From: a virus
Lineage: Duplodnaviria; Caudoviricetes
Direction: 5' to 3' (one strand)
IMG/VR virus record: IMGVR_UViG_3300035670_001093
Location: 1 to 26,625 of that record
Length of the DNA stretch: 26,625 nt
Shown here: piece after piece, positions 5,701-26,536 of the stretch
How the letters are laid out: each line of letters begins with the position of its first letter
How positions within the stretch are numbered: the stretch's first letter is position 1
Made by a program: the position numbers and the translations under genes
Notes under the pieces: generated by a model
Seen by the model: only the letters and a program-made list of their open reading frames with translations
Database searches by the model: none
Told to the model about the DNA's origin: nothing

Positions 5701-5720
5701 ACCGGTGGTATAAGTTCACC
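5701..5720 (+). promoter_or_regulatory. Putative extended -10 promoter (TGG-TATAAG) upstream of tailspike
   Basis: ACCGGTGGTATAAG; the 10-mer ACCGGTGGTA recurs at 11327 upstream of another fibre gene; GGTG-N9-CACC at 5704-5720. Confidence 0.4.
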
Positions 5721-5740
5721 AGTTTGCGAGGGCCCTCGGC

Positions 5741-8599: not shown

Positions 8600-8609
8600 C
8601 GGAGGCACC

Positions 8610-9098
8610 ATGGCCGAACCTCGCTGGCTGACACGGGCGCGCGCCTACATTGGGCTGCGCGAGGTCCCGGGAGCGCGCACGGAGCCGGTCATCGCCGGCT
8701 GGCTGAAGCGCGCGAAGGCCTGGTGGAACGACGACGAGACGCCGTGGTGCGGCACGTTCGTCGACGCTGTCATGCGCGACTGCGGCATCGGCAGCGCGAA
8801 GGCTTGGTATCGGGCGCAGGGCTGGCTCGAGTGGGGCCAGCCGCTGTCGGGCCCGACGCTGGGTGCCATCGTCGTGTTCAAGCGCACCGGCGGCGGTCAC
8901 GTCGGCATCATTGCCGGCATCGACGACCGCGGGAACCTGATGGTCCTCGGGGGCAACCAGGGCAATGCCGTCTGCATCATGCCGTTCGCGCGGGATCGCG
9001 TGATCGGGTATCGCTGGCCGGTTGCTATGCCGGTCCCCGGTTTATCCACGCTGCCCGTGTTGGCGAGCACCGGCGCACTCTCGAGGAACGAAGCATGA
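8610..9098 (+). CDS. TIGR02594-family (NlpC/P60/CHAP-like) peptidoglycan hydrolase, probable endolysin
   Basis: DDETPWCGTFV, GGGHVG and LGGNQGNAV motifs; GGAGG RBS at 8601. Confidence 0.9.
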   Translation: MAEPRWLTRARAYIGLREVPGARTEPVIAGWLKRAKAWWNDDETPWCGTFVDAVMRDCGIGSAKAWYRAQGWLEWGQPLSGPTLGAIVVFKRTGGGHVGIIAGIDDRGNLMVLGGNQGNAVCIMPFARDRVIGYRWPVAMPVPGLSTLPVLASTGALSRNEA

Positions 9099-12177: not shown

Positions 12178-12316
12178 CGCCGGCAGGATTCTCGCGCGGT
12201 AGTAACGCGGGGCACAAAGGCTAGGCGGGATTAACGGGCAACATTCTTGCGCGACCGGAAGTGTCCGGTGGGTAAGGGGATGATGCGGCTGGGCGTTGTC
12301 CGTTAGCGTTTGCTTA

Positions 12317-12344
12317 TTGTCGCATAATGCACAATCGGGCTATC
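12317..12344 (+). other. dif-like site (good XerC arm, degenerate XerD arm); candidate attP
   Basis: TTGTCGCATAA-TGCACA-ATCGGGCTATC versus E. coli dif GGTGCGCATAA-TGTATA-TTATGTTAAAT; lies in the convergent intergenic gap. Confidence 0.4.
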
Positions 12345-12385: not shown

Positions 12386-12712
12386 TCACGGGCTGCCATG
12401 CTTGCGATTCGTGTACGGCCTGCCCGGCCCGCGCAGCGCCCGCAGTTTCGCGTTCACCGCCCGGCACTGGAACCTGACCTCGAGCAGCACCGAGCGGGCA
12501 GGGCGGTCCTCCCAGCGGCTCGCCTGCTCCATCATCGTCGCCAGCCCGCGCAGGTGGTCGGCCACCCGGCGCAGCGATACGACGGAACGCAGCGGGATGT
12601 CGAGCCTGGCGACGTCGCCGACGATCATCCTGTCGAGCCCGTCGATCTCGTCGACGCTGTTCTGCTCGAGCTGCCGGCGACGGATTACTTCTTCCGGTGT
12701 GATCTGAACCAT
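12386..12712 (-). CDS. Hypothetical helical protein (108 aa) with its own promoter
   Basis: ATG 12712 with AAGGAGG RBS; MVQITPEEVIRRRQLEQ... Confidence 0.7.
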   Translation of the reverse strand: MVQITPEEVIRRRQLEQNSVDEIDGLDRMIVGDVARLDIPLRSVVSLRRVADHLRGLATMMEQASRWEDRPARSVLLEVRFQCRAVNAKLRALRGPGRPYTNRKHGSP

Positions 12713-12737
12713 TGTTGCCCTCCTTGGCGATGCAGCC

Positions 12738-13892: not shown

Positions 13893-14129
13893 TCAGGCCC
13901 CGCCCTTGATGTCGTGCAGGTAGATGCAGTGCCCGCCGTTGACGTCGCCGCCCTTGAGCGCGTTGGCTATGGCGATCAGTGCTTCGGCGTGGCGCTCGGA
14001 TGCGCGGGACAGCGCCTCGATCGCGGCGCGCGTGTGCTCGTTCGCCGCCGTGTTGTTGGTGTAGTTGAAGTGGCTGTCTTGGATCGTGATGTCGCCCTTC
14101 TCGGGCGCCTTCGGTTTCTTCGTTGCCAT
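13893..14129 (-). CDS. Hypothetical protein (78 aa), first gene after the 14202 promoter
   Basis: AGGGAG RBS; promoter immediately upstream. Confidence 0.7.
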   Translation of the reverse strand: MATKKPKAPEKGDITIQDSHFNYTNNTAANEHTRAAIEALSRASERHAEALIAIANALKGGDVNGGHCIYLHDIKGGA

Positions 14130-14167
14130 GGTCTTGCTCCCTGTGTCAGCGGTCGTGCGCCGCTGTT

Positions 14168-14202
14168 GGTGCGTTTATCGCACCACTACCGGTACGTGTC
14201 AA
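14168..14202 (-). promoter_or_regulatory. Sigma70 promoter TTGACA-N17-(TGC)GATAAA overlapped by perfect operator GGTGCG-TTTAT-CGCACC (14168-14184)
   Basis: Perfect -35; same geometry as the promoter at 19685. Confidence 0.7.
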
Positions 14203-14542
14203 CGGGTCCGGTCAACAATTTCTCCGCGTCCTCCGACGAACGGCAGATGCCGGCGATCCCGCCTGCCGCGCGCACGGCCGCGATGAATGCCAGCTGCTCC
14301 TTGGTAGGCCGGCCGGTTTCGGCTTTCGCCTCGATGGCGACGAACACGGCGATCCGCTTGCCGACCATGTCCGGCGTCACGACGACCGACTGCCAGCCGA
14401 TCACGTCGCTGCTGCCGACGCACAGGCCAGTCCGCACGACGCGCCCGTCCTCCGTGCGGAATTGGCCGGTCGAGTTGCGAAAGAGACGGACGGCTCCTTT
14501 ACCGAGCCGGAGAATCATGGATAGAACGGCGGCTTCTTTCAC
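14186..14542 (-). CDS. VRR-NUC family nuclease (putative Holliday junction resolvase)
   Basis: RLFRNSTG, GSSDVIG, FVAIEAK...GRPTKEQLAF..GGIAG; GTG 14542 overlaps HNH stop. Confidence 0.9.
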   Translation of the reverse strand: MKEAAVLSMILRLGKGAVRLFRNSTGQFRTEDGRVVRTGLCVGSSDVIGWQSVVVTPDMVGKRIAVFVAIEAKAETGRPTKEQLAFIAAVRAAGGIAGICRSSEDAEKLLTGPVDTYR

Positions 14543-15090
14543 AGTAGGCGTCCGATACGGTTTGCGTATTCGATTGGATCTGTCGCGTGCTTCCTGCTGT
14601 TGCAGGGTCTGCACGCTGGCGCGATGTTGTCCGGTTCGTGTTTGCCGCCTCGAGCCAGCGGCGTGATGTGATCCATAGTCAGCGGTCGCTTCTTGCCGCA
14701 GTAGGCGCAACAGTTCCGGTGCTTCGTCTTGATCTGGGCCCACTGCAGCGGCGTCACGCCTGGTGAGCCAGACATCGCATGCTTGCGGCGCGCGCGCTTG
14801 TTCTGGTCGTTGACTCGGCACCTGTCTCGGTTCTGCTGGCGATATTTTCGGTAATTCTCCTTACGTTCAGGAGTGGCGTTGTATCTGCGCTGGCGCTCAC
14901 GATGTTGTTCAATGTGCGCTGCGTTGTAGGCCATCGCTCGCGCCACTTCCTGCTCGCGGTGTTCGCTATACCAATCGCGTTTATATGCGGCGTAGCAGGT
15001 GCGGCAGTAGGTGTGCGTTCCGTCCTTTCGGTTTCCCTTTGGGAATCCGTCGAGCGGTTTGGTCTGCTTGCAGCGAGGACACTCACGCAC
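14539..15090 (-). CDS. HNH endonuclease with N-terminal Zn finger (free-standing homing type)
   Basis: CPRC...CRTC; CAYCG...TMDHITPLARGGKHEPDNIAPACRPCNSRK; visibly lower GC. Confidence 0.9.
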   Translation of the reverse strand: MRECPRCKQTKPLDGFPKGNRKDGTHTYCRTCYAAYKRDWYSEHREQEVARAMAYNAAHIEQHRERQRRYNATPERKENYRKYRQQNRDRCRVNDQNKRARRKHAMSGSPGVTPLQWAQIKTKHRNCCAYCGKKRPLTMDHITPLARGGKHEPDNIAPACRPCNSRKHATDPIEYANRIGRLL

Positions 15091-16462
15091 GGCGGCGACC
15101 CTTCCGTGACTTCCAGACCATGTGCGCCCAGGCCGTGGGGTTCTGGTACCCGCGCATCTTCCCGAGCGCGATCAGCCCGGCCAGCGACTTCGTCATGCCC
15201 TGCTCGCGGGCGGCGTCCTTCGCCTCGACGTCGGCGATCTCCTCGAGGTCGCCTTCGACCTGCCGGATCTTCCGCGCCTCGACCGGGAACGGGTTGCCGC
15301 AGTCGACGCACTTCTCGGCACCCGGCATGCTGATCGCAAAGCACACAGGGCAGCGCCTTCCTGCCGACGGCGCCGCCTCGCCTTTCCCGCGGCGCTCGGT
15401 GTTACCTTCGAGCGTCCACTCTCGCAGCGCGGCCGGGTGCCCGTGCATCTGGTACAGCCCGCCATGATCCAGCACGACGCAGTCCGGCTTGCCCGGGTGA
15501 ATCCGCAGCCCGCGGCCTACCGACTGCAGGAACATCGTCAGCGACTTCGTCGGCCGGTCCAACCCGATGCAGCTCACGTTCGGGGCGTCGACGCCGGCCA
15601 CCCACAGCGCGCAGTTTGTCACCACGTCGACGCGCCCGGCCTGCAGGTCGGCAAGCGCCTGGCGGCGTTCCTCGCTGTCCGTCTCGCCGCTCACTGCCAC
15701 GGCTCGGACCCCGGCCGACCGGAACTGATGGGCCATGGCCTCGGCGTGCGCGATGCTGCAGCAGAACCGGATCGTGGGGCGGTGCCGCGCAAGGCGCAGC
15801 CAGTGAGCCACGGCGTCGCCGACCAGCTTCGGCTTCGACATCACCGCCTCGAGGTCGTCGCGCGCGTAGTCGCCGGCCAGCGTCCGCACCCCGGACAGGT
15901 CGACGTCGGTCGGCGCAAAGTACCGGATCGGCGCCAGCAGGCCCTCGGCGATGAGGTCGCCCGAGCTGCAGGTCGGGATGATGACATCGGCCACCTCACC
16001 GAGGCCGCGGCCGTCGAGCCGCTGGGGCGTCGCCGTGAGCAGCAGCAGGAACGGGTCGCCCGTGCCGCGGATCACCTTGCGGTACGTCTCGGCGACGGCC
16101 AGGTGCGCCTCGTCGATGATGAGCAGGTCCGGGCGCGGCAGGCGGTCGAGCCGGCGGACGGCGGTCTGCACGCTGACGACCTGCACAGGCAGGCGCGGTT
16201 GCTCCGGCTGGCCTGCCATGATCGTCCCGTGCCGAATGCCCTCGGCGGTTAGCTTTCCGCTGGTCGCCTCGAGGATCTCGCGCAGGTGAGCCATGAACCA
16301 GACGCGCTTGCCCTTGGCAACCGAGATGCGAACGAGCTCGGCCGTCGTGTGGGTCTTGCCGAATCCTGTCGGGGCAACCAGCACCGGCGCGCGATAACCG
16401 GCGGCATAGGCCGCACGGATGTCGTCGATCGCCTTGACCTGGCGGGGACGGAGACCGTTCAC
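15083..16462 (-). CDS. SF2 DExH helicase (RadD/YejH-like) with C-terminal Zn finger
   Basis: APTGFGKT, IIDEAH, LTATP, QSVGRGLR, CPVC..CVDC. Confidence 0.93.
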   Translation of the reverse strand: MNGLRPRQVKAIDDIRAAYAAGYRAPVLVAPTGFGKTHTTAELVRISVAKGKRVWFMAHLREILEATSGKLTAEGIRHGTIMAGQPEQPRLPVQVVSVQTAVRRLDRLPRPDLLIIDEAHLAVAETYRKVIRGTGDPFLLLLTATPQRLDGRGLGEVADVIIPTCSSGDLIAEGLLAPIRYFAPTDVDLSGVRTLAGDYARDDLEAVMSKPKLVGDAVAHWLRLARHRPTIRFCCSIAHAEAMAHQFRSAGVRAVAVSGETDSEERRQALADLQAGRVDVVTNCALWVAGVDAPNVSCIGLDRPTKSLTMFLQSVGRGLRIHPGKPDCVVLDHGGLYQMHGHPAALREWTLEGNTERRGKGEAAPSAGRRCPVCFAISMPGAEKCVDCGNPFPVEARKIRQVEGDLEEIADVEAKDAAREQGMTKSLAGLIALGKMRGYQNPTAWAHMVWKSRKGRRRA

Positions 16463-17046
16463 GGATAACCCTCTGGCATGCGGTTACCCTTCCTGCGGTT
16501 TTCCTCTCGACTCACAATTCGGAGATTGCCCTCGCAGTGCAGGCCGCAGACGTAGCGCGACCGCAGCGGGTAGATGTGGTCGACCTCCATGCCCTGCTGG
16601 CGTGCCTGCTCGTATATCTTCTCGATGGCGTCGAGGTTCGCCCATGAAGGCGTTGCGCGCAGTTTCTGCGCCTGCCGCTTGCGGACATCTGCGAGAACCT
16701 TGTGAGGGTTCTGCCTTGCCCACTGGCGTTTAAGTTCGCGGTTGCGTTCCGGGTTTTGACGTTCCCACTGCTTCGCCTTTTCTGGGTTTGCTCGCTTCCA
16801 CGTCTTGCTCTTGTCACGATTCGCGCGCGCGTAACGGTTGGCGATCGTTTTTCTGGCGTCGGGGTTGTTCGCAGCCCACTGCTTGTTCTTCGCGTACACG
16901 CATTGCTTGCAGGTGGCGCAGTGCTTGCCGGTGTCCTTCCTGAAATGGAAATCATGTAGCGGCTTCTCGACGCCGCAGCACCGGCACGTCTGCCCGCGGA
17001 TCTGCTCGATCAGTTCGGCCTGGTACGGCCGGAGGGCGATGGTCAT
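16459..17046 (-). CDS. HNH endonuclease with helicase-like N-terminal 17 aa
   Basis: CRCC...CATC; EVDHIYPL...VCGLHCEGNLRIVSREENRRKGN. Confidence 0.88.
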   Translation of the reverse strand: MTIALRPYQAELIEQIRGQTCRCCGVEKPLHDFHFRKDTGKHCATCKQCVYAKNKQWAANNPDARKTIANRYARANRDKSKTWKRANPEKAKQWERQNPERNRELKRQWARQNPHKVLADVRKRQAQKLRATPSWANLDAIEKIYEQARQQGMEVDHIYPLRSRYVCGLHCEGNLRIVSREENRRKGNRMPEGYP

Positions 17047-17954
17047 GGCGCACCGGCTGGCGAGGTAATCGCATCACTCACGGCAGCGTTTTGCGAGCTC
17101 GGTGAATGCTGCTGCCGCCACTCGAGCCACTTGTCCATTGCCAGTGGCTTTAAGTCGGTCCACCCGAGCGGCCACCCCATCAGCCACTCGGTGAAAGCCG
17201 GATTCAGCCGGCCAGTCTGGCCAGACTGCGCGGCCTCTCGCTCGATCGTGTAGTCCAGCCTGTCGTTCGAGTCCGCCCTGTTGTGGCCTGGTGACCAGCC
17301 TTTGTGCTGCGTGGCCGTCGGAGTCGGGAACGCTGGCACTTTCCACTGCGCTTTCCTCACGTCGCGCCCGGCTATTGCGCTCGCTTCCGCAAGCGTCGCC
17401 TCCCCGTCCAGCCATCGTTGCCGGCATAGCCTCACCGTCCCCTCGCATGGCATCGCGCTGGCTGTTGGCGTAGGCCACAATCCAGATTCGCTCGCGCAGG
17501 TGAGGGGCGCCAACATCGGCCGCGGAAACAACTCCCCATTCCGCATCGTACCCGAGCGCGGCAAGGTCACAGAGCACCCTGTCGAGTCCTCGAGAAACGA
17601 GAGCTGGGCTGTTTTCAATGAATGCGAAGCGGGGTCGTACTTCGCCAATGATGCGGGCCATTTCGTGCCACATCCCGCTGCGCTCGCCGTCGAGTCCTTT
17701 CCCTGTCCCGGCGACGCTGATGTCCTGGCATGGGAAGCCGCCAGATACCACGTCAACAAGGCCTCGCCACGGTCGTCCGTCAAAGGTGCGAACGTCATCC
17801 CAAATCGGGAAAGGCGGGAGCATGCCGTCATTCTGTCGGGCGAGCAGTACGCTTGCTGGGTAGGGTTCCCACTCGACAGCGCAGACGGTTCGCCATCCGA
17901 GCAGGTGGCCGCCGAGTATTCCGCCACCAGCGCCTGCGAAAAGTGCCAGCTCAT
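17043..17954 (-). CDS. Overlapping +1-frame ORF: putative beta subunit of split C5 methyltransferase (TRD-like region + motif IX)
   Basis: WPTP/FPTP repeats and GRLNPAFTEWLMGWPLGWT; stop overlaps the HNH ATG; start immediately follows the upstream stop. Confidence 0.7.
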   Translation of the reverse strand: MSWHFSQALVAEYSAATCSDGEPSALSSGNPTQQAYCSPDRMTACSRLSRFGMTFAPLTDDRGEALLTWYLAASHARTSASPGQGKDSTASAAGCGTKWPASLAKYDPASHSLKTAQLSFLEDSTGCSVTLPRSGTMRNGELFPRPMLAPLTCASESGLWPTPTASAMPCEGTVRLCRQRWLDGEATLAEASAIAGRDVRKAQWKVPAFPTPTATQHKGWSPGHNRADSNDRLDYTIEREAAQSGQTGRLNPAFTEWLMGWPLGWTDLKPLAMDKWLEWRQQHSPSSQNAAVSDAITSPAGAP

Positions 17955-17958
17955 TCAT
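17074..17958 (-). CDS. dcm: DNA cytosine-5 methyltransferase, catalytic (alpha) chain lacking motif IX
   Basis: LFAGAGG (I), GGFPCQDIS (IV), IENS (VI), HLRERIW (VIII), RLKATGNGQV (X). Confidence 0.92.
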   Translation of the reverse strand: MNELALFAGAGGGILGGHLLGWRTVCAVEWEPYPASVLLARQNDGMLPPFPIWDDVRTFDGRPWRGLVDVVSGGFPCQDISVAGTGKGLDGERSGMWHEMARIIGEVRPRFAFIENSPALVSRGLDRVLCDLAALGYDAEWGVVSAADVGAPHLRERIWIVAYANSQRDAMRGDGEAMPATMAGRGGDACGSERNSRARREESAVESASVPDSDGHAAQRLVTRPQQGGLERQAGLHDRARGRAVWPDWPAESGFHRVADGVAARVDRLKATGNGQVARVAAAAFTELAKRCRE

Positions 17959-18152
17959 AGGTTCTCGTTATTGATGAAGTCGATGGTGTGTCTGCAGCGC
18001 CGCACGCGCGGCGCCTGCATCTGCTGGCAGTAGGCGGCGTACCAGCGGCGCGCGCCCGAGTGCATCGGGTGCGACCACCAGCCGTTGCCGCCTCGCCAGC
18101 CTGCTCGACGCAGGGCCGCGGCTACCTGTTCAGGGCAGCGGATCTCGACCAC
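17955..18152 (-). CDS. Hypothetical protein (65 aa)
   Basis: GTG start just after Cro-like stop; stop overlaps MTase ATG. Confidence 0.55.
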   Translation of the reverse strand: MVEIRCPEQVAAALRRAGWRGGNGWWSHPMHSGARRWYAAYCQQMQAPRVRRCRHTIDFINNENL

Positions 18153-18154
18153 GG

Positions 18155-18382
18155 TCAGTCCCCGATCAGGTCGTCGGCCCGCAGGCGGATGCCGTTCGCC
18201 TTGGCGACGCGCAGGATGGTCCGGTGGTATTTCGCCGGGATCAGCCCGTCGGTGCCTTCCGGCTTCGGCTTGCGCCAGCGCACGACCCAGGAGTGGTCGA
18301 CGTCCAGCTCGCGGGCGAGCGCGCGCGGCCCGCCGAACGCCTCGATGACGCGGTTGGCTGGGGTGTCGGGGTAGTCACTCAT
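18155..18382 (-). CDS. Cro-like HTH regulator (75 aa)
   Basis: VIEAFGGPRALARELDVDHSWVVRWR...GLIP; AAGGAG RBS; ATG 18382. Confidence 0.85.
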   Translation of the reverse strand: MSDYPDTPANRVIEAFGGPRALARELDVDHSWVVRWRKPKPEGTDGLIPAKYHRTILRVAKANGIRLRADDLIGD

Positions 18383-18513
18383 GGCTGGCACTCCTTGAAT
18401 GCCGGCCATGTTTTGCACCGCAAGGCGTCGATTAGATCGTTGTCGCCGCACGAGACAAGGCACGCGCAAAAGAAGATCAGGACTATCCAGACGTTCGCTG
18501 CGTTCTGGCTCAT
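18379..18513 (-). CDS. Small putative lipoprotein (44 aa)
   Basis: Hydrophobic N-terminus and LVSC lipobox-like motif; ATGA coupling at both ends. Confidence 0.55.
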   Translation of the reverse strand: MSQNAANVWIVLIFFCACLVSCGDNDLIDALRCKTWPAFKECQP

Positions 18514-18902
18514 ACCGCAGACCTCGCCAGCCCTGCGATCACGGCGACCAGCACGATCACCACCAGCACGGTCAGCGCGATGTCGCCGACGCGGCTGGGC
18601 TCGTCCTCGCGCAGGCTCTGGTCGTCGGCGCCGTCGGTTGCGTCGCGGCGTACCTGCTCGGAGCGGCGTTCGAGTTCGGCGGCAGACACCGGCGGCAGGA
18701 CGACGTGCGGTGTCTGCTCGTCGAACGACACGCGCACCGCGCACCCTGCCTTGTGCGCCTCGCGCGCGATGTCCTCGAGGGTTACCGGCTGCGACACCTT
18801 CGTGCCCTTGTCGCTGCGCGGCTTCCGCGCCCGTTTCACCGGCGGCCTCTTACCCGCAGGCTTCCTGTCCCGGCGCGGTGCCGGCTTCTTCGTGGTCCCC
18901 AT
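18510..18902 (-). CDS. Protein with Lys/Arg-rich N-terminus and C-terminal TM helix (130 aa)
   Basis: ATG 18902 with GGGGG RBS; MGTTKKPAPRRDRK...IALTVLVVIVLVAVIAGL. Confidence 0.65.
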   Translation of the reverse strand: MGTTKKPAPRRDRKPAGKRPPVKRARKPRSDKGTKVSQPVTLEDIAREAHKAGCAVRVSFDEQTPHVVLPPVSAAELERRSEQVRRDATDGADDQSLREDEPSRVGDIALTVLVVIVLVAVIAGLARSAV

Positions 18903-18914
18903 ATATCCCCCGTT

Positions 18915-19002
18915 AGTGGTGATAACGCACCACCCATGGTGCCAGTATCGCACCGGGGTTGCAATCCCCTCGTGGCCGTGTATATGGTGCGGTATACGCA
19001 CC
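18915..19002. promoter_or_regulatory. Divergent switch region: three 17-bp operators (18915-18931, 18938-18954, 18986-19002) and leftward promoter TTGCAA-N17-(TGG)CACCAT
   Basis: AGTGGT-GATAA-CGCACC; GGTGCC-AGTAT-CGCACC; GGTGCG-GTATA-CGCACC. Confidence 0.75.
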
Positions 19003-19066
19003 GCATGACAGGCATGCCCGTGCTGGGTGTGTGTCTTTGATCCATGTCAAAGAAAGGCGGCCAAGG

Positions 19067-19663
19067 ATGGCGATAGACACTCGGTGGTTCCGCGACAGGC
19101 TCGCCGATCGGCAGATGAGCCAGCGGGAACTGGCCCGCAAGATGGGCCTCGACCATGCCTCGATCTCGGGGCTCATCAGGGGGAAGCGACCAATGCGGAT
19201 GCAAGAGGCAGCCACGATCGCGCGGCTGCTGGGCGTGCCAGTGTCACAGGTCGTCGAGCACGCCGGCCTGAAACTCGAGGACTCTCGCCAGTGCGCCATC
19301 GTCGGTTACGTCGACGGCACCGGCGAGGCGCACATCGACTGGCACTCCGAGTCCGACCGCGCGCCCTGCATGCTCGGCTGCCCGGAACGCTGCGTCGCCA
19401 TCCGGTTCCAGACCGCGGCCACCACGCTCGACCACCTCGACGGCTGGCTGGCGCACCTGCTGATCCCAGACGACGGCGTGCCGGCCGATTCCGTGGGCAG
19501 ACTGTGCCTGGTCAAACTGCGCGAGGGCATGAAGATCGTCGCCACGGTTCGCCGCGGCTACCAGCCCGGCCGCTGGAACCTGATCCGGCTGGCCGGCGGG
19601 GCGCTCGAGGGCGCCGATCTGCAGTGGGCGACCCCGATCCGGGTGCTGCGCGCGCCGGAATAA
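19067..19663 (+). CDS. CI-like XRE HTH repressor with degenerate S24-like C-terminal domain
   Basis: MSQRELARKMGLDHASISGLIRGKR HTH; IVGYV...GRLCLVKLREG; divergent from the Cro-containing operon. Confidence 0.85.
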   Translation: MAIDTRWFRDRLADRQMSQRELARKMGLDHASISGLIRGKRPMRMQEAATIARLLGVPVSQVVEHAGLKLEDSRQCAIVGYVDGTGEAHIDWHSESDRAPCMLGCPERCVAIRFQTAATTLDHLDGWLAHLLIPDDGVPADSVGRLCLVKLREGMKIVATVRRGYQPGRWNLIRLAGGALEGADLQWATPIRVLRAPE

Positions 19664-19684
19664 GGCGTAATTCTGCGGCACCTG

Positions 19685-19719
19685 TTGACACCGGGCGGGA
19701 GCGGTGCGATATTCCCACC
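19685..19719 (+). promoter_or_regulatory. Sigma70 promoter TTGACA-N17-(TGC)GATATT overlapped by operator GGTGCG-ATATT-CCCACC (19703-19719)
   Basis: Perfect -35, extended -10, directly upstream of the exonuclease gene. Confidence 0.75.
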
Positions 19720-19758
19720 GCCGGCGTGAGACCGGCACCACCATCAGGGAGATCCACC

Positions 19759-20730
19759 ATGGCAATCATCATCCCGCGCGACCGCCAGCACTGGCTGGAA
19801 TTGCGCGCCGGCGTCGTCACCTCGACCGAGGTGTCCGCCCTGTTCGGCGAGTCGCCGTACCTCACCGCGTTCGAGCTCTGGCACCGGAAGAAAAACGGGG
19901 ACCTCGGCGAGATCGCCGACAACGACCGCATGAAGTGGGGCCGTCGCCTCGAGGCCAGCATCGCCGAGGGCGTGGCCGAGGACTTCGGCGTCGACGTCCG
20001 CAACCTGCAGGAGTTCGCCACCCACGACGACGTCCGCATGGGCGCCTCGTTCGACTTCGAGGTCATCGGCACGCTGGTCGGCCACGAGGACGTCGCTGAC
20101 CGCCGGCTGCTCGACCTGTACGACGAGCACGGCCCGGGCGTCATGGAGATCAAGAACGTCGACGGCCTCGCCTGGCGCAACAACTGGACCCGCGGCGAGG
20201 TCGCCGAGGCGCCGGCCCACATCGAGATCCAGCTGCAGGCGCAGCTCGACTGCCTCGGCCGCGAGTGGGGCTGCATCGTGGCGCTGGTCGGCGGCAACGA
20301 GGCGCACGTCATCGTCCGCAAGCGGGACCGTGCCGTCGGTGCGGCATTGCGCCGCAAGGTCGCCGAGTTCTGGGCCAGCATCGAGGCCAACACGCCGCCG
20401 CCTCCGGTCATGCCGCAGGACGCCGCCTTCATCGTCCAGCTTTACCAGTTCGCCGAGCCGGGCAAGGTTTTCGATGGCCGCGGTGATGCGGAGATCGCAT
20501 CGCTGTGTGCCGAATACCACCAGGCCGGCAAGGAGGAGAAGGCCGCCAAGGACCGCAAGGATTCCGCGCGCGCCCGCCTGCTCGAGCGCATCGGCGACTC
20601 CGAGAAGGTCCTCGCCGACGGCTTCAGCATCAGCTGCGGCATGGTCGGCCCGGCCGAGATCCCCGCCTACACCCGCGCGGGTTATCGCGGGTTCCGTGTC
20701 ACCGCCAAGAAATCCACCAGCAAGGAGTAA
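19759..20730 (+). CDS. YqaJ / lambda-exonuclease family recombination nuclease
   Basis: WLELRAGVVTSTEVSALFGESPY, WGRRLE, ASFD, MEIKNV, IQLQAQL; AGGGAG RBS. Confidence 0.92.
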   Translation: MAIIIPRDRQHWLELRAGVVTSTEVSALFGESPYLTAFELWHRKKNGDLGEIADNDRMKWGRRLEASIAEGVAEDFGVDVRNLQEFATHDDVRMGASFDFEVIGTLVGHEDVADRRLLDLYDEHGPGVMEIKNVDGLAWRNNWTRGEVAEAPAHIEIQLQAQLDCLGREWGCIVALVGGNEAHVIVRKRDRAVGAALRRKVAEFWASIEANTPPPPVMPQDAAFIVQLYQFAEPGKVFDGRGDAEIASLCAEYHQAGKEEKAAKDRKDSARARLLERIGDSEKVLADGFSISCGMVGPAEIPAYTRAGYRGFRVTAKKSTSKE

Positions 20731-20737
20731 CGCCACC

Positions 20738-21574
20738 ATGTCCACCGCAATCGTCGAGTTCCGCAACACCCTGACCAGCATGGCGCCCGAGTTCGGCAAG
20801 GCCCTGCCGGCGCACGTCACCAGCGACAAGTTCACCCGCGTCGTGATGTCCGCCGTCCAGGCCAACCCGGACGTGCTCAACGCCGACAAGCGCACGCTGC
20901 TCGGTGCCTGCATGAAGGCCGCGCAGGACGGCCTGCTGGTCGACGGCCGCGAGGCCGCGCTGACGGTCTACAACAGCAAGGCCGGCAAGGTCGTCCAATA
21001 CATGCCGATGATCGCCGGCATCCTGAAGAAGGCCCGCAACAGCGGCGAGATCAGCACCATCGCCGCCGAGCTGGTCTACGAGAACGACTCGTTCAAGTAC
21101 CGCATCATCAACGGCAAGCCGGAGATGAGCCACGAGCCCGACGTGTTCAGCGACCGCGGCGAGATTAAGGGCGCCTACGCCTGCGCGGTGCTGAAGGACG
21201 GCAGCACCATGATCGAGGTGATGTCGAAGGCCGACATCGAGAAGGTCCGCGCCGCCAGCCGCGCGAAGGACTCCGGCCCGTGGGTGTCCTGGTGGGGCGA
21301 GATGGCGCGCAAGACTGTCCTGCGCCGCCTGTCGAAGCGCCTGCCGTCCAGCTCCGACCGCGAGGACGACCTGCAGCGCACGATCCAGCGCGACGACGAT
21401 CTGTACGACCTGGACCAGCAGCAGGACGCCACGCCGGCCGGCGCTGCTCCGGCTGCTACCGCCCGGCCGTCGTCGCTGTCCCGCGTTGTCGAGGCCGCTG
21501 GCGCGACGATTGACGGCACCGCCGACGAGATCCCGCCGGCGTCGCCCGAGAACCTCGACGACATCCCGCTGTGA
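20738..21574 (+). CDS. recT: RecT-family ssDNA annealing protein
   Basis: ALPAHVTSDKFTRV, AAQDGLLVDGREAA, PWVSWWGEMARKTVLRRLSKRLP; follows the exonuclease. Confidence 0.92.
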   Translation: MSTAIVEFRNTLTSMAPEFGKALPAHVTSDKFTRVVMSAVQANPDVLNADKRTLLGACMKAAQDGLLVDGREAALTVYNSKAGKVVQYMPMIAGILKKARNSGEISTIAAELVYENDSFKYRIINGKPEMSHEPDVFSDRGEIKGAYACAVLKDGSTMIEVMSKADIEKVRAASRAKDSGPWVSWWGEMARKTVLRRLSKRLPSSSDREDDLQRTIQRDDDLYDLDQQQDATPAGAAPAATARPSSLSRVVEAAGATIDGTADEIPPASPENLDDIPL

Positions 21575-21582
21575 GGTGATGC

Positions 21583-21786
21583 ATGACGTCGCAGGCATTC
21601 CTGACGACGGAGGACCTGGCTGCCCGGTGGCGCATGTCACCGGGCGGCATCAAGAACCTCCGCAATTCCGGGCGCCCGCACCCGAAGCACCTGAAGTTCG
21701 GGTTCGGCAAAAACTCACCCGTCCGCTACCCGCTGGACGAGGTGGAAAAATTTGAGCGGGAGAATATGAGGGGTGAGGATGTATGA
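21583..21786 (+). CDS. Excisionase/AlpA-like HTH DNA-binding protein
   Basis: FLTTEDLAARWRMS...VRYPLDEVEKFE. Confidence 0.8.
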   Translation: MTSQAFLTTEDLAARWRMSPGGIKNLRNSGRPHPKHLKFGFGKNSPVRYPLDEVEKFERENMRGEDV

Positions 21787-22535
21787 GCGGGCATAACTGG
21801 CTGATTGATAGGATTGACGGCTCGTTCACTTGGTGGATGTGTTCTCGGTGCGGGCTCAAAAAACCGACAAGTATGGGCAATCCTCCGCGCGCTGACGTTG
21901 AACCGTCGTGCGGGGCTGTTGCTGAAAAACTGAAAGACGCCGACGGCTGGATCGAGTGGAAGGGCGGCGACTGCCCGTGCGGGCCTGGCGTGGTGGTCGA
22001 GTGGAAAACGCGGGCGATGCCTGGCGATCAGATTTATTGGGGCCCGCGCGAGGCCGACCTGCTCGACTGGCGGCAAACCGGAGGCGGCGACGATATTGTC
22101 GCCTTCCGCGTCGTCGGCGCGGTGACGATGCACGTCCAGAAGCCGGGCGAGTCGCGCCGGGTATGCGTTCATGGCATGCCGGAAGGAGGCGTCTGCGCGC
22201 AGTGCTTTGCAGACCATGCAGTGCGCGAGGACAGGCGCAAGCTGTCCGGCGTCGGCCTCTACAACGACAACGGCGACGAGAGCATCCTCGCCGAAGCCGC
22301 CCGCATCGTCGCCGGCGATCGCCAGGCCGACTACGGCGACATGCGCGCGTCGTTCGGCAGGATCGCTACGATCTGGTCAGCCATCCTCGACACCCGCGTC
22401 TCGCCGCGCGACGTCGCCCGCTGCATGATCGCGCTCAAGCTGTCCCGCGACCTGCACCGCCCGAAGCGCGACAACCTGGTCGACATCGCCGGCTACGCGC
22501 ACTGCGCCCAGCAGCTCGAGGACGACGTGCCATGA
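21783..22535 (+). CDS. Mosaic protein with C-terminal DUF6378-like (all-alpha NTP pyrophosphatase-like) domain
   Basis: ILAEAARIVAGDRQADYG...KLSR...RDNLVDIAGYA; upstream GWIEWKGGDCP...DIVAFR module and Cys motifs. Confidence 0.75.
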   Translation: MSGHNWLIDRIDGSFTWWMCSRCGLKKPTSMGNPPRADVEPSCGAVAEKLKDADGWIEWKGGDCPCGPGVVVEWKTRAMPGDQIYWGPREADLLDWRQTGGGDDIVAFRVVGAVTMHVQKPGESRRVCVHGMPEGGVCAQCFADHAVREDRRKLSGVGLYNDNGDESILAEAARIVAGDRQADYGDMRASFGRIATIWSAILDTRVSPRDVARCMIALKLSRDLHRPKRDNLVDIAGYAHCAQQLEDDVP

Positions 22536-22888
22536 ACGCGCCCGAGTGGACGTCTCGTGACATGCTGCGGCTTCGCCACCTCTACGGCACCATCCCTGCG
22601 AGCGATCTGGCCGCGCATTTTCCGGGGCGCACTGAAAAGGCCATCCGTGAGAAGGCGCGCAGGATAGGGCTCCGGTCCAGCCTTCACCGCGAGCAGCGCG
22701 GGCAGCGCCTGTCGCAGGCTTTCTACGAGGAGATACTGGCCGAGTTCGCCGCTGACAAGATCGTCACCATCGCCGCCAGGCGCGGGGTTCCCGAGGGGAC
22801 GGTCAGTTCGTGGGTCAGCCGGGCCAAGTGGCGGCGCGACGCGCAGGCAAAAAAATCCCCGGGGAGCATGGCTCAACCCGGGGAGTGA
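22532..22888 (+). CDS. Myb/SANT-like plus HTH putative regulator (118 aa)
   Basis: WTSRDMLRLRHLY...FPGRTEKAIREKARRIGL; IAARRGVPEGTVSSW; ATGA coupling. Confidence 0.65.
   Translation: MNAPEWTSRDMLRLRHLYGTIPASDLAAHFPGRTEKAIREKARRIGLRSSLHREQRGQRLSQAFYEEILAEFAADKIVTIAARRGVPEGTVSSWVSRAKWRRDAQAKKSPGSMAQPGE
22849..22884 (-). terminator. Rho-independent terminator on minus strand
   Basis: TCCCCGGG-GAGC-ATG-GCTC-AA-CCCGGGGA stem preceded on + by A7 (U7 tail on minus). Confidence 0.65.
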
Positions 22889-22925
22889 GTAGGGAGTCAC
22901 CATGGCCGTCAGGGAGGGCGGCCGT
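22849..22925 (-). ncRNA. Candidate ~75-nt antisense small RNA
   Basis: Bounded by minus-strand promoter (22931-22960) and terminator; carries CUCCCU anti-SD tracts. Confidence 0.45.
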
Positions 22926-22930
22926 GGTCG

Positions 22931-22961
22931 ACCATAGCAGCGCCGGTGCGCTCGTCGCAAC
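22931..22961 (-). promoter_or_regulatory. Promoter TTGCGA-N18-(TGC)TATGGT overlapped by operator GGTGCG-CTCGT-CGCAAC (22945-22961)
   Basis: Operator differs by one base from consensus; back-to-back with possible + promoter TTGTGG-N17-TACCGT (22966-22994). Confidence 0.55.
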
Positions 22962-23093
22962 AGTGTTGTGGATTCCTCACCACTGCGATACCGTTATGGC
23001 TGGGGCTTGGCCGGTCTGATCCACCGGCGACAAGGCTTTGTCCAGGCGCGGGGCTGCCCCTTCCATTCCGCGCCTTCTGCCTGGAGATACCGT

Positions 23094-23291
23094 ATGAATC
23101 GCTTTGAGCTCCGCCTCAAGAATATCGAGTCGACGCCTTTTCACGGCCCTGTGATCGACGTGATGGACACGTTCGACACTGTGGTCCGCGGCCTCGAGGT
23201 CTTTGCGCCTGATAACTGGACCGCTGCCGATGCCGTCAGGCTGACGGAGCTGGTCCTTGCCCGCGTCGACTCAACCGCAAAGCAAGAGTGA
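23094..23291 (+). CDS. Hypothetical protein (65 aa)
   Basis: GGAG RBS, ATG 23094. Confidence 0.6.
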   Translation: MNRFELRLKNIESTPFHGPVIDVMDTFDTVVRGLEVFAPDNWTAADAVRLTELVLARVDSTAKQE

Positions 23292-23301
23292 GGCCTATCT
23301 C

Positions 23302-25716
23302 ATGGCCTCTGGGACAATCGACCCCGGCGTAATTGCGCGGGCAAAGGACAGTCTTGTCGACACGATCGGCAGGTTCGTCGAGATCAAGAAACGCGGGAAC
23401 GAATACGTCGCCTGCTGCCCGTTCCACCAGGAGCGCAGCCCGTCGTTCACCGTCAACCCCGACAAGGGGTTCTACTACTGCTTCGGGTGCGGGGCGACCG
23501 GCGATGCCGTCGACTTCGTCATGCACCACCAGGGCCTTGGGTTCCGAGAGGCCGTCGAGCTGATCGTCGGCAACCTGCCGGCCGGGCCCGCGCCGGAGCG
23601 TTCGTCGCCGCGGCCGCGCGCGCCGGAGCGCCAGGTCATCACGCCGGCGCCGACCCCGTGCCCGTCGTTTTTCCACCCCGCCTACGGCGAGCCGGTCCAC
23701 GTCTGGGCCTACTCCGACCTGCAGGACCGCCTGCTCGGCTACGTCGCCCGGTACGAGCCGGCCGGCGAGCGCAAGCAGATCGTGCCGTGGACGTTCGGCG
23801 GGCAGCCTGACCAGCGTCCGACGTGGGGCATGGGCCAGTTCACCGACCCTCGCCCGCTGTACGGGCTCAACACGCTGCCGGGCGCGAAGGCCGTCCTGCT
23901 GGTCGAGGGCGAGAAGGCCGCCGATGCGGCGCGCGCGTTTGCCGGCGGGGTCTACGCGGTCATGACGTGGCCGGGCGGCTCGCAGGCCTGGCGCAAGGTC
24001 GACTGGTCGCCGCTGCATGGGCAGCGCATCCTGCTGTGGCCTGACGCCGACGAGCCGGGCCTCGAGTGCATGCGCGCCATCGGGCGCCAGCTCCTGCCGC
24101 ACTGCCCGGAGGTCAAGATCATCGACCCGCAGGGGCAGCCGAAGGGCTGGGACGCCGCCGACAGCGGGTTCGACTGGCAGGCGTTCCTCGCTTGGGCGAA
24201 GCCTCGAGTATCGCTGCTGCCGGCCGACGAGCCGCCAGACGATCCGGCCCCGCCTTCGCCGCCACCGCCGCCGGCAACCCCGCCGCCGCGCGCGCGCCCC
24301 GCTCTGGTCGTGGTCGGTAACACCGCAGCCGCAGCCGCGCCAGTGGCAGAGTGCGACGTCATCCCCGAGAAGTTCAGCGAGGACAATGCGGCGCTCGCGT
24401 TCAGCAAGCGGCACGCCGAGGAGCTGCGCTATGTCGCAGGCTGGGGCAGGTGGATGAAGTGGGACGGGGCCCGCTGGACCAACGAGGACACGCTCGAGGT
24501 GTTTGACCTAGCCCGTGTCGTGTGCCGTGAATTCGCCCGCGACGCGCGCACGGATGGCTCTCTGTCCGATTCCCAGCGGTCCAGGGTGGCAACGGTCTAC
24601 GGCAAGAGCCAGACCGTCACCTCCGTGGAAAAACTGGCTAAGGCCGACCGCCGGCACGCCGCCACGACGCGCCAGTGGGATTCCGACCCGTGGCTGCTGA
24701 ACACCCCGGCCGGCGTTGTCGACCTGCGTGACGGCACGCTCCACCCGCAGCGGCGCGACGCCTACATGACCAAGATCACCAGCGTCGCGCCCGGTGGCGA
24801 CTGCCCGACGTGGCGCAAGTTCCTCGACGTGGCAACGCACGGGGATACCGAGCTGCAGGTGTTTATGCAGCAGCTCGCCGGGTACTCCCTGACCGGCATC
24901 ACGCGCGAGCAGATACTGGCATTCGTTTACGGCCCCGGCGGCAACGGCAAAGGCACGTTCATCAACACGTTGCAGTGGGTGATGGGCGACTACGCCACAA
25001 CGGCCGCGATGGACCTGTTCACGGAGCGCAAGCACGAGGGCCACCCGACCGAGCTTGCCGGCCTGATGGGAGCCCGGCTGGTCACTGCCCAGGAGACCGA
25101 GGAGGGCAAGCGGTGGGCAGAGGCGCGCATCAAGGCAATGACCGGCGGCGACCCGATCAAGGCCAGGTTCATGCGGCAGGACGAGTTCGAGTTCATCCCG
25201 CAGTTCAAGCTGCTGATCGCCGGCAATCACAAGCCCGGTCTGCGGAACGTCGACGAGGCTATCCGCCGGAGGCTGCGCCTGATCCCGTTCGATGTCATGA
25301 TCCCGGCCGAGAAACGCGACCAGCACCTTGCTGAGAAGCTTCGCGGAGAAGGGCCCGGCATCCTGCAGTGGGCTATCGACGGATGCCTCGACTGGCAGGC
25401 GAGAGGGCTGCTGACGCCGGCCCGCGTGCTGGCCGCGACCGAGGACTACCTCGAGCAGCAGGACAGCTTTGGCCTGTGGCTTGAGGAGTGTACGGTTCGC
25501 ATCCCGGGAGCGACTAAACGCAGCTCGCTTTACGAGTCTTTCAAGGCATGGGCAGACCGATCCGGGGAGTACCAGCTGCCGCAAAAGCGGTGGGTGGCTG
25601 CGCTTGAGCAGCGCGGATTTAGCACCATGACGCGCAAGGGCTACCCTGTCGTCGAGGGAGTCGGGCTGAAGGAGGTCCAAAATGCTCCTTACTGGCCCGA
25701 CGAACGTGATTACTGA
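23302..25716 (+). CDS. Primase-helicase: CHC2 zinc finger, TOPRIM-like primase, Pro-rich linker, D5_N and SF3 (P4 alpha/D5-like) helicase
   Basis: CPFHQERSPSF..CFGCGATGD; LLVEGEKAAD; WPDAD; LLNTPAGVVDL; GPGGNGKGT; RFMRQDEFEF; GAGG RBS before ATG 23302. Confidence 0.93.
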   Translation: MASGTIDPGVIARAKDSLVDTIGRFVEIKKRGNEYVACCPFHQERSPSFTVNPDKGFYYCFGCGATGDAVDFVMHHQGLGFREAVELIVGNLPAGPAPERSSPRPRAPERQVITPAPTPCPSFFHPAYGEPVHVWAYSDLQDRLLGYVARYEPAGERKQIVPWTFGGQPDQRPTWGMGQFTDPRPLYGLNTLPGAKAVLLVEGEKAADAARAFAGGVYAVMTWPGGSQAWRKVDWSPLHGQRILLWPDADEPGLECMRAIGRQLLPHCPEVKIIDPQGQPKGWDAADSGFDWQAFLAWAKPRVSLLPADEPPDDPAPPSPPPPPATPPPRARPALVVVGNTAAAAAPVAECDVIPEKFSEDNAALAFSKRHAEELRYVAGWGRWMKWDGARWTNEDTLEVFDLARVVCREFARDARTDGSLSDSQRSRVATVYGKSQTVTSVEKLAKADRRHAATTRQWDSDPWLLNTPAGVVDLRDGTLHPQRRDAYMTKITSVAPGGDCPTWRKFLDVATHGDTELQVFMQQLAGYSLTGITREQILAFVYGPGGNGKGTFINTLQWVMGDYATTAAMDLFTERKHEGHPTELAGLMGARLVTAQETEEGKRWAEARIKAMTGGDPIKARFMRQDEFEFIPQFKLLIAGNHKPGLRNVDEAIRRRLRLIPFDVMIPAEKRDQHLAEKLRGEGPGILQWAIDGCLDWQARGLLTPARVLAATEDYLEQQDSFGLWLEECTVRIPGATKRSSLYESFKAWADRSGEYQLPQKRWVAALEQRGFSTMTRKGYPVVEGVGLKEVQNAPYWPDERDY

Positions 25717-25853: not shown

Positions 25854-26084
25854 ATGACTACCGACTGCCCGCACTGCAAAACCAACGCCGCGATCTACGA
25901 CCTGAACCGCCTGTGCTGCGCCGCCAGGTTCCTCGCCTCTCTGCCCACCCGCGCGTCCATGGCGCGCACCGCCGAGGCGTTCCAGCGCCGCCACGGGCAC
26001 ACCCTCGAGGACCTGCGCCGCGAGGTCGTCCGCATCCAGCGCGAGCAGGCCGAGGCAGCCCTCGCTGCCCACGTCCCGCGTTGA
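25854..26084 (+). CDS. Small Cys-containing hypothetical protein (76 aa)
   Basis: CPHC...CCAARFL. Confidence 0.6.
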   Translation: MTTDCPHCKTNAAIYDLNRLCCAARFLASLPTRASMARTAEAFQRRHGHTLEDLRREVVRIQREQAEAALAAHVPR

Positions 26085-26116
26085 CCTGAACGCACCGACG
26101 GGGGCAGAATCGCACC
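26081..26116 (+). promoter_or_regulatory. Putative promoter TTGACC-N18-CAGAAT with two CGCACC operator half-sites
   Basis: CGCACC at 26091 and 26111; -10 ends 6 nt before terS ATG. Confidence 0.45.
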
Positions 26117-26536
26117 ATGACCGGCAGGCCGAGTGACTACACGCCAGAGATCGCAGACACGATCTGCGAACGGGTCGTCATGCGCCCGCTGCACCAGGTC
26201 GCCAAAGACGACGACATGCCGTCCGAGACCGCGATCTACTCGTGGCTGGGTAAACACCCTGACTTCGCAACGAAGTACGCGCGCGCGAAGGAGATCCGTG
26301 CTCACCGTCGCGCCGAGCAGGTCGACCAGATCATGGAGGACCTGAAGGCGGGGCGCGTCGACCACCAGCAGGCCCGCGTCATGCTCGACGCGATCAAGTG
26401 GCAGACCGGCAAGGAGGCGCCTCGCGTGTTCGGCGACAAGGTCCAGCACGAGGGCACCGGCGCCGGCGGCGCGATCCTGATTCAGGCCGTGACCAACGTG
26501 CCGCAGGCCGATGACGGCGACAGTCCAGCAGGTTGA
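26117..26536 (+). CDS. terS: Terminase small subunit
   Basis: GRPSDYTPEIADTICERV...MPSETAIYSWL...IKWQTGKEAPRVFGDK. Confidence 0.88.
   Translation: MTGRPSDYTPEIADTICERVVMRPLHQVAKDDDMPSETAIYSWLGKHPDFATKYARAKEIRAHRRAEQVDQIMEDLKAGRVDHQQARVMLDAIKWQTGKEAPRVFGDKVQHEGTGAGGAILIQAVTNVPQADDGDSPAG

Follow-up and report, generated by a model that had tools for sequence, protein, structure and literature searches.

Gene content of the window

The window, a stretch of 26,625 nucleotides from IMG/VR record IMGVR_UViG_3300035670_001093 (Duplodnaviria; Caudoviricetes), is a phage fragment of 66% GC that is 59% complete. Its rightward genes encode a cI-like repressor (19067), a RecE-like exonuclease, RecT, an excisionase-like protein, an HTH regulator-like protein (22532–22888), the product of an ORF at 23094, a primase-helicase (23302), and TerS. 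The leftward genes encode a Cro-like protein, a methylase, HNH proteins, a helicase, and a VRR-type nuclease, and the gene for a CHAP endolysin starts at 8610. The encoded proteins are 30–56% identical to those of the relatives, which are viral and metagenome contigs. For the exonuclease, the nearest named phages are Ralstonia and Burkholderia phages (~44%), and the closest homolog of the cI-like repressor is P0002 (81%), encoded on a 37-kb contig. The HTH gene matches phrog_323 (E 2e-8), and a homolog search with it returned itself alone. No family, look-alike, or known domain was found for gene 12712, which is conserved across the phage family, and no family was found for gene 14129. A family scan of the window's ORFs recognized no integrase, and a tRNA scan of the window returned none.

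Gene order suggests that a central block (VRR to HTH, 14168–22961) is inverted relative to the related phages, with its junctions near operator sites. In the relatives, the cro arm carries VRR and then primase, and the homolog of gene 12712 is found downstream of cI/recT. In one relative with an exonuclease ~92% alike (run X6, record 25, compared with window positions 18964–19755), the operator region lies within ~270 nt of the exonuclease start, so this relative appears to have no cI at that place. An AT-rich stretch at 12300–12340, between the tail genes and gene 12712, carries a promoter-like site, and one of its arms resembles a XerC arm of dif. A 303-codon ORF (17043–17954, minus strand) covers almost the whole methylase gene in another frame of the same strand.

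Promoter, operators, and terminator of the minus-strand unit

The initial annotation had described an operator-controlled antisense RNA gene at 22849–22961, and the sequence strings on which that description was built, including those at the exonuclease, 14129, and 12712 starts, were all found where it had placed them. On the minus strand, this interval carries an operator-overlapped promoter-like site followed by ~77 nt in which two CU-rich loops precede a U7 terminator. The promoter-like site (22931–22960) consists of a −35 box TTGCGA (22960–22955) and a −10 box TATGGT (22936–22931) separated by a spacer of 18 nt, and it has a TG extension at the −10 box (22939–22931) that had been overlooked. 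It shares the form TTGCRA-N18-TATGGT with the site before cI (18959–18988). A 17-bp operator-like palindrome with one mismatch (22945–22961; PWM score 15.8) lies over the −35 box, and a second, weaker operator-like site (22965–22981) lies over the −35 box of a rightward promoter (22966–22994) that stands back-to-back with the first. The intrinsic terminator (22849–22884) comprises a hairpin at 22884–22856 and the U7 tract at 22855–22849 (−21.3 kcal/mol), and it lies antisense to the 3′-terminal part of the HTH gene. A generic scanner missed both the promoter (8/12 consensus matches) and the terminator. Contigs from the Logan collection (run X1, which may be the source sample) match the window in two pieces, 19833–22890 (one difference, at 22580) and 22874–23500 (no differences), and so the unit region is not an assembly artefact. 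Both proposed bounds of a ~75-nt unit are in place. The unit is only partly non-coding, however: the HTH gene extends with its 3′ end over the last 40 nt, and the plus strand has an SD and an 11-codon ORF.

The palindrome GGTGCG-N5-CGCACC occurs with at most one mismatch at five sites in the window (14168, 18938, 18986, 19703, and 22945), compared with 0.4 expected from Markov sequences, the 17-bp consensus having been picked post hoc. The same motif is found at dispersed sites in most related loci. An operator half-site coincides with the −35 box in 75 distinct promoters, of which 66 related loci contribute 72 and the window 3; judged from these sequences, such doubling is the usual promoter design of this phage family. 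A terminator follows within 170 nt in 3 of the 75, and the window unit is the only compact unit among them. The operator before gene 12712 has three mismatches and is, taken alone, at chance level, although homologs of this gene in L026, L029, and L031 stand behind family operators.

Dispersed 17-bp operator-like sites in the window lie at 14168, 18915, 18938, 18986, 19703, 22945, 22965, 26080, 26100, 12740, and 5704. Such sites, with half-sites that double as −35 boxes, may constitute a family-wide regulon. The site at 5704 precedes a tail gene (5741). The terS promoter (26080–26119, plus strand) has two operator-like sites, and because the ATG is only 6 nt past the −10 box, terS mRNA would be leaderless; several relatives have the same arrangement.

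Homologs of the unit, its slot, and the neighboring leader

Both ends of the unit recur, on the same strand, in one contig from a separate study (run X9). Window positions 22846–22867 are matched at 21/22 letters and 22944–22982 at 33/39, and the two blocks are 74 letters apart in the contig and 76 in the window; joints with a short side often stem from other organisms, and we read this one accordingly, as a relative. At its loose end the contig runs into the leader motif described below, at the expected distance. Because the flank past the terminator is unlike the HTH gene, the unit appears to travel with the leader module and not with the HTH gene.

Searches for homologs of the unit were otherwise negative. 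Its exact motifs occur neither in the viral contigs nor in the genome contigs searched, and a loose pattern gave 99 loci, 18 of them with a hairpin, none of which is a promoter-bounded non-coding unit. blastn against phages and plasmids returned short chance pieces only. A single-sequence model of the RNA (R1), which is insensitive and was run on many records that are fragments, gave E-values no lower than 2 in 66 loci, 0.27 in 36 records, and 7 in 28 loci, and matched 0/12 further records. A terminator-anchored scan for analogs (147 terminators) found nothing convincing outside the window, and no usable coverage of the unit came from runs X2, X3, X4, X6, X7, and X8. As no homolog was found in 48 related records or in the related loci searched, the interior would be lineage-restricted or fast-evolving.

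An Rfam scan, one of the checks that the initial annotation had proposed, returned no hits in the window at the gathering cut-off, and a scan by E-value gave sub-threshold hits only. A weak full-length match to anti-hemB (RF02837) reached 20 bits against a gathering cut-off of 49.5 (E 0.034), so the unit is not a member; weak hits of this type were rejected as generic because similar ones occur in 14/45 records and 11/14 control genomes. The Betaproteobacteria toxic (double-hairpin) sRNA model (RF02278) and, in the window, the C4 antisense RNA model (RF01695) gave no hit at E ≤ 10.

The unit stands back-to-back with a promoter and leader that are found in 16 other loci. The leader (23002–23060, plus strand) lies behind the rightward promoter, in front of the primase module, and forms a predicted three-way junction, with a loop (23041–23051) complementary to 23068–23075 and to 23079–23085 (SD of ORF 23094). 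A model of this leader matches 16 of 31 pattern-hit loci (L176, L178, L180–L183, L185, L187, L189, L191, L192, L194, L196, L199, L201, and L202) as well as the window at E ≤ 2e-8, 5 of these 17 sequences being those from which it was built. Two-sided changes affect 8 of 23 base pairs across 12 distinct sequences, and none of 500 shuffles reaches the covariation score, a score biased upward, since the model was used to fit the alignment. The third loop is complementary to two downstream sites, one of them at the RBS, in 10 of 11 distinct leaders, and in the window the loop and both sites have changed together in a compensatory manner. A VRR-type gene lies before the leader in 10 of the 16 loci, and a hit to the window's primase lies behind it in 6. 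It has no Rfam match, and we found nothing relevant to it in the literature consulted. The leader is better supported than the minus-strand RNA, and it represents a well-supported structured RNA family that lacks an Rfam match.

In the relatives, the slot divergent from the leader can hold other RNA genes. It is occupied by tRNA-Met in 2 of 12 loci scanned (L187, 9838–9914, minus strand; L178, 5117–5193, plus strand), and L181 has a cloverleaf there (5730–5815, plus strand; z −3.7), behind a TG-extended −10 box. Of 13 distinct upstream regions, 3 (those of the window, L178, and L181) have a divergent TG-extended −10 box. Because tRNA-Met genes and a cloverleaf occupy the slot in relatives, we consider it to be used for non-coding RNAs.

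These observations bear on whether the unit is a gene at all. It could be a by-product: a palindromic operator supplies a −35 box to either strand, the terminator would do no more than insulate the early operon, and the interior would be the neutral remnant of a start region at a rearrangement junction. Operator half-sites do serve as −35 boxes throughout the family, the inverted central block has one of its junctions at the unit, and the interior was not found in 48 related records and did not align in X9. A relic of this kind leaves unexplained, however, why the X9 unit agrees in length to within 2 nt, why a second operator and a TG-extended −10 box are present, why relatives carry tRNA genes in the slot, and why the interior is structured with both anti-SD words exposed, and we regard it as quite unlikely. 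The unit is probably a non-coding RNA gene. Its family promoter, the ends kept in X9, and the tRNA genes in the slot point to a minus-strand, operator-controlled small RNA gene as the likely identity.

Predicted RNA structure, pairing with translation starts, and possible role

With its 5′ end inferred from the −10 box, the predicted RNA is ~77 nt long (22849–22925, minus strand). Hairpin 1 (22904–22923) has a 5-bp stem and a CU-rich anti-SD loop (22918–22909), and the linker between it and the terminator (22885–22903) contains an anti-AUG flank and a second CU-rich anti-SD word (22896–22889). The computed unpaired probabilities leave both CU-rich words largely single-stranded in the predicted structure, and the anti-AUG letters lie partly inside stem 1.

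The complementary strand also has a plausible function. At 22891–22937 (plus strand), directly past the HTH stop, an SD (22891–22896) precedes an 11-codon ORF (22902–22937) with an SD–ATG spacing of 5 nt, and a 12-bp hairpin (22899–22928) hides the ATG. These elements could form a translation-coupled attenuator or processing site at the end of the early operon, and the targets would then look like this stretch simply because it is a start region itself. We kept this explanation chiefly because the plus strand folds better (z −4.9, compared with −3.2 for the minus strand) and carries the SD and ORF. The hairpin energies are −22.4 and −13.6 kcal/mol, respectively, as the G-U pairs of the plus strand are A-C mismatches on the minus strand, and the antisense strands of ordinary starts score similarly to the minus-strand RNA. 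Nevertheless, the U-tract works on the minus strand only, and both ends conserved in X9 are minus-strand signals. No U-run follows the plus-strand hairpin, and its outer pairs fall before the inferred 5′ end of the minus-strand RNA. We consider a function confined to the plus strand to be the least probable of the alternatives.

The OOP RNA of phage lambda is ~77 nt long. As described in PMC5869508, OOP is transcribed leftward, terminates inside the 3′ end of cII with an overlap of 52 bases, has a repressor site at its promoter, and lies beside a replication gene. The window unit has the same geometry, being short and leftward, with its own promoter-like site and terminator, a 40-nt overlap with the HTH gene, and the primase gene nearby at 23302. 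An OOP-like RNA would pair in cis with the last 40 nt of the HTH gene, its possible target, and with the intergenic rightward transcript, and would lower HTH expression or primase read-through; the generic scanner listed no plus-strand terminator between the exonuclease promoter and primase, which is compatible with such read-through. This role seems improbable to us. The terminator itself makes up 36 of the 40 overlapping nt, the X9 flank beyond the terminator is unlike the HTH gene, and two anti-SD loops would be left unexplained. Moreover, OOP acts in cis on cII and is LexA-controlled, whereas the unit has the phage family's own operator, an overlap that is almost terminator only, and a 5′ half composed of two anti-SD words that match unlinked genes.

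The initial annotation had proposed that the RNA pairs in trans with the exonuclease, 14129, and 12712 starts and that these be ranked against all phage start regions. We scored 31 hand-annotated starts of the window with a home-made accessibility-aware method (not IntaRNA), using 350 starts drawn from 463 as background. The starts of genes 14129 (14123–14145, minus strand; −10.3 kcal/mol; rank 1–4 over settings) and 12712 (12706–12730, minus strand; −10.3; rank 1–3) and of the exonuclease gene (19741–19763, plus strand; −9.1; rank 2–5) ranked 1, 2, and 5 of 31, and they remained in the top 5 in all six settings of 5′ end and flank. Three candidates had been omitted. The 13443 start was third (−10.2). 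The endolysin start (8601–8616, plus strand; −9.1; rank 1–6) is the best exact match, with 15/16 nt complementary and an 11-nt perfect run across the AUG that exceeds any among 465 start–start pairs. The leader of the cI-like repressor gene (19045–19062, plus strand; −8.7; rank 6, and 5–8 over settings) is a weaker candidate. The best accessible pairing with 14129, 12712, and 13443 involves hairpin 1 and their SDs, and the linker pairs with the endolysin and exonuclease starts. The proposed pairing with SD plus AUG requires stem 1 to open, and for 14129 and 12712 the best accessible pairing covers the SD only.

The ranking favors genes behind operators. Seven operator-first starts of the window outscore the other 24 (Mann–Whitney p 0.004). 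They also outscore 35 operator-first starts of relatives, none of which reaches −8.7 (p 0.0004), in a comparison that is not GC-matched. Six of the 31 window starts fall within the top 5% of the 350 background starts (binomial p 0.003). In contrast, raw duplex energies do not exceed those of shuffles (130 of 300 are as good), and ranking by them, which places 14129 and 12712 at 9 and 14 of 31, is uninformative. The net energies of −9 to −10 kcal/mol are modest, and 9 of the 350 foreign starts equal the best score. When the natural antisense strands of other starts were scored in the same way, the sum of the top five was as strong in 8/31 and strong hits were as numerous in 6/31. Pairing strength is thus what any anti-RBS would give, which bears out the caveat, raised at the outset, that SDs resemble each other anyway. 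The endolysin, exonuclease, and 14129 starts share a start word of 8–10 nt, and so these three matches are not independent. Of 18 starts of exonuclease orthologs in relatives, 2 score −9.6 and −8.9, compared with −9.1 in the window, and no such RNA was found there. Pairing with the start of ORF 23094 behind the leader is weak (−3.1). The unit does not stand out by the strength of any one pairing; it stands out because two anti-SD words and an anti-AUG are exposed between a promoter and a terminator and because it favors the operator-first starts of its own phage.

An RNA of this composition might mainly serve host mRNAs. The Burkholderia double-hairpin (toxic) sRNAs and anti-hemB are short, terminator-ended RNAs whose CU-rich unpaired stretches are complementary to RBSs, as described in PMC5688073 and PMC1950547. 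The predicted RNA resembles them in its CU-rich loop, CU-rich linker, and terminator, and PMC5688073 places 55–80% of the predicted pairings of double-hairpin RNAs on start regions. The unit could accordingly encode a generic CU-rich anti-SD RNA with phage matches that are incidental, as is also suggested by the foreign starts that pair as well as the best phage starts and by the weak full-length anti-hemB hit. The preference for the phage's own operator-first starts over those of relatives speaks against mainly host targets. So do the low anti-hemB score, the frequency of such hits among related records and controls, and the absence of an RF02278 hit, and we judge host targeting to be unlikely, if somewhat less so than the other alternatives. 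The Burkholderia families (RF02278 and RF02837) are also chromosomal, whereas the unit is phage-borne and operator-covered.

The initial comparison with P22 sar and P1 C4 is less apt: sar acts as an antisense RNA in cis, and no hit was obtained with the Rfam model of C4. OOP and the Burkholderia double-hairpin sRNAs are the closer analogies. The C4 RNA of P1 and the CI RNA of P4 use two single-stranded seeds to pair with start regions and are cut from the leader of the operon that they control. The unit, by contrast, has its own promoter-like site on the opposite strand and its own terminator and is not made from the transcript of a target operon. By architecture, the leader at 23002–23060 is more C4/CI-like than the unit. 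As summarized in a review (PMC12197685), P22 sar blocks translation initiation of the antirepressor, and as15 of PAK_P4 is proposed to repress endolysin and delay lysis. Each of these is antisense to one gene, whereas the unit is unlinked to its several predicted targets. The same source describes VpdS of VP882, PreS of lambda, and 24B_1 as phage-encoded, Hfq-associated sRNAs that tune the lysis–lysogeny outcome, their main targets being host mRNAs, Hfq, or a single antirepressor gene; the predicted targets of the unit are instead several phage starts. Phage regulatory RNAs in the literature consulted are mostly antisense to one overlapping gene or host-acting. Within the open-licence literature searched, we found no repressor-controlled phage sRNA with several unlinked phage targets, although the 38 phage sRNAs without function that the review tabulates may include a similar one.

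We consider the most likely reading, with a probability of about 0.4, to be that the unit encodes a repressor-controlled, trans-acting anti-RBS sRNA that would damp early genes, cI, and lysis. Its basis is the anatomy of the unit, the promoter design shared across the family, the recurrence of both unit ends in an independent contig, and the complementarities; that the unit is transcribed, that the cI-like (or Cro-like) protein represses it, and which starts it targets are inferred from these. The alternatives are not all exclusive. In outline, inactivity of the phage repressor would allow a ~77-nt sRNA to be made, which would block translation in trans by pairing with RBSs of genes of the same phage. 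Pairing would nucleate between loop 1 and the exposed SDs of 14129, 12712, and 13443, and once stem 1 opens, the linker would extend over the SD and AUG of exonuclease and endolysin. Because the sRNA promoter would be released together with those of its early targets, the arrangement would be an incoherent feed-forward loop, in which the accumulating sRNA damps the exonuclease, 14129, and 12712 operons and early recombination genes are expressed as a pulse. The sRNA would also lower cI translation and delay endolysin, and its terminator would in addition stop the minus-strand transcript from entering the early operon.

In its most specific form, this reading has a phage repressor regulon that includes a trans-acting sRNA of its own, which would pair simultaneously with the starts of several unlinked phage genes (early recombination genes, genes without a known function, the repressor gene, and the endolysin gene). 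Such an sRNA would time lytic development by RNA feed-forward and would be exchangeable cargo of a non-coding slot that stands back-to-back with a covarying, previously undescribed anti-RBS leader of the primase operon; this version we regard as tentative and rather doubtful. If true, the genetic switch and the timing of lysis, endolysin included, would gain an RNA layer with several targets.

Five CU-rich, terminator-ended hairpin units were seen in related phages, in L205 (1501–1566), L206 (1501–1569), L209 (1501–1565), L207 (1501–1547), and L210 (975–1031). They have no family operator in front. Those of L205 and L209 lie just downstream of the endolysin gene, and that of L205 faces an integrase-like gene. 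These units may be analogs of the window unit, attP-borne ends of host RNAs, or plain terminators.
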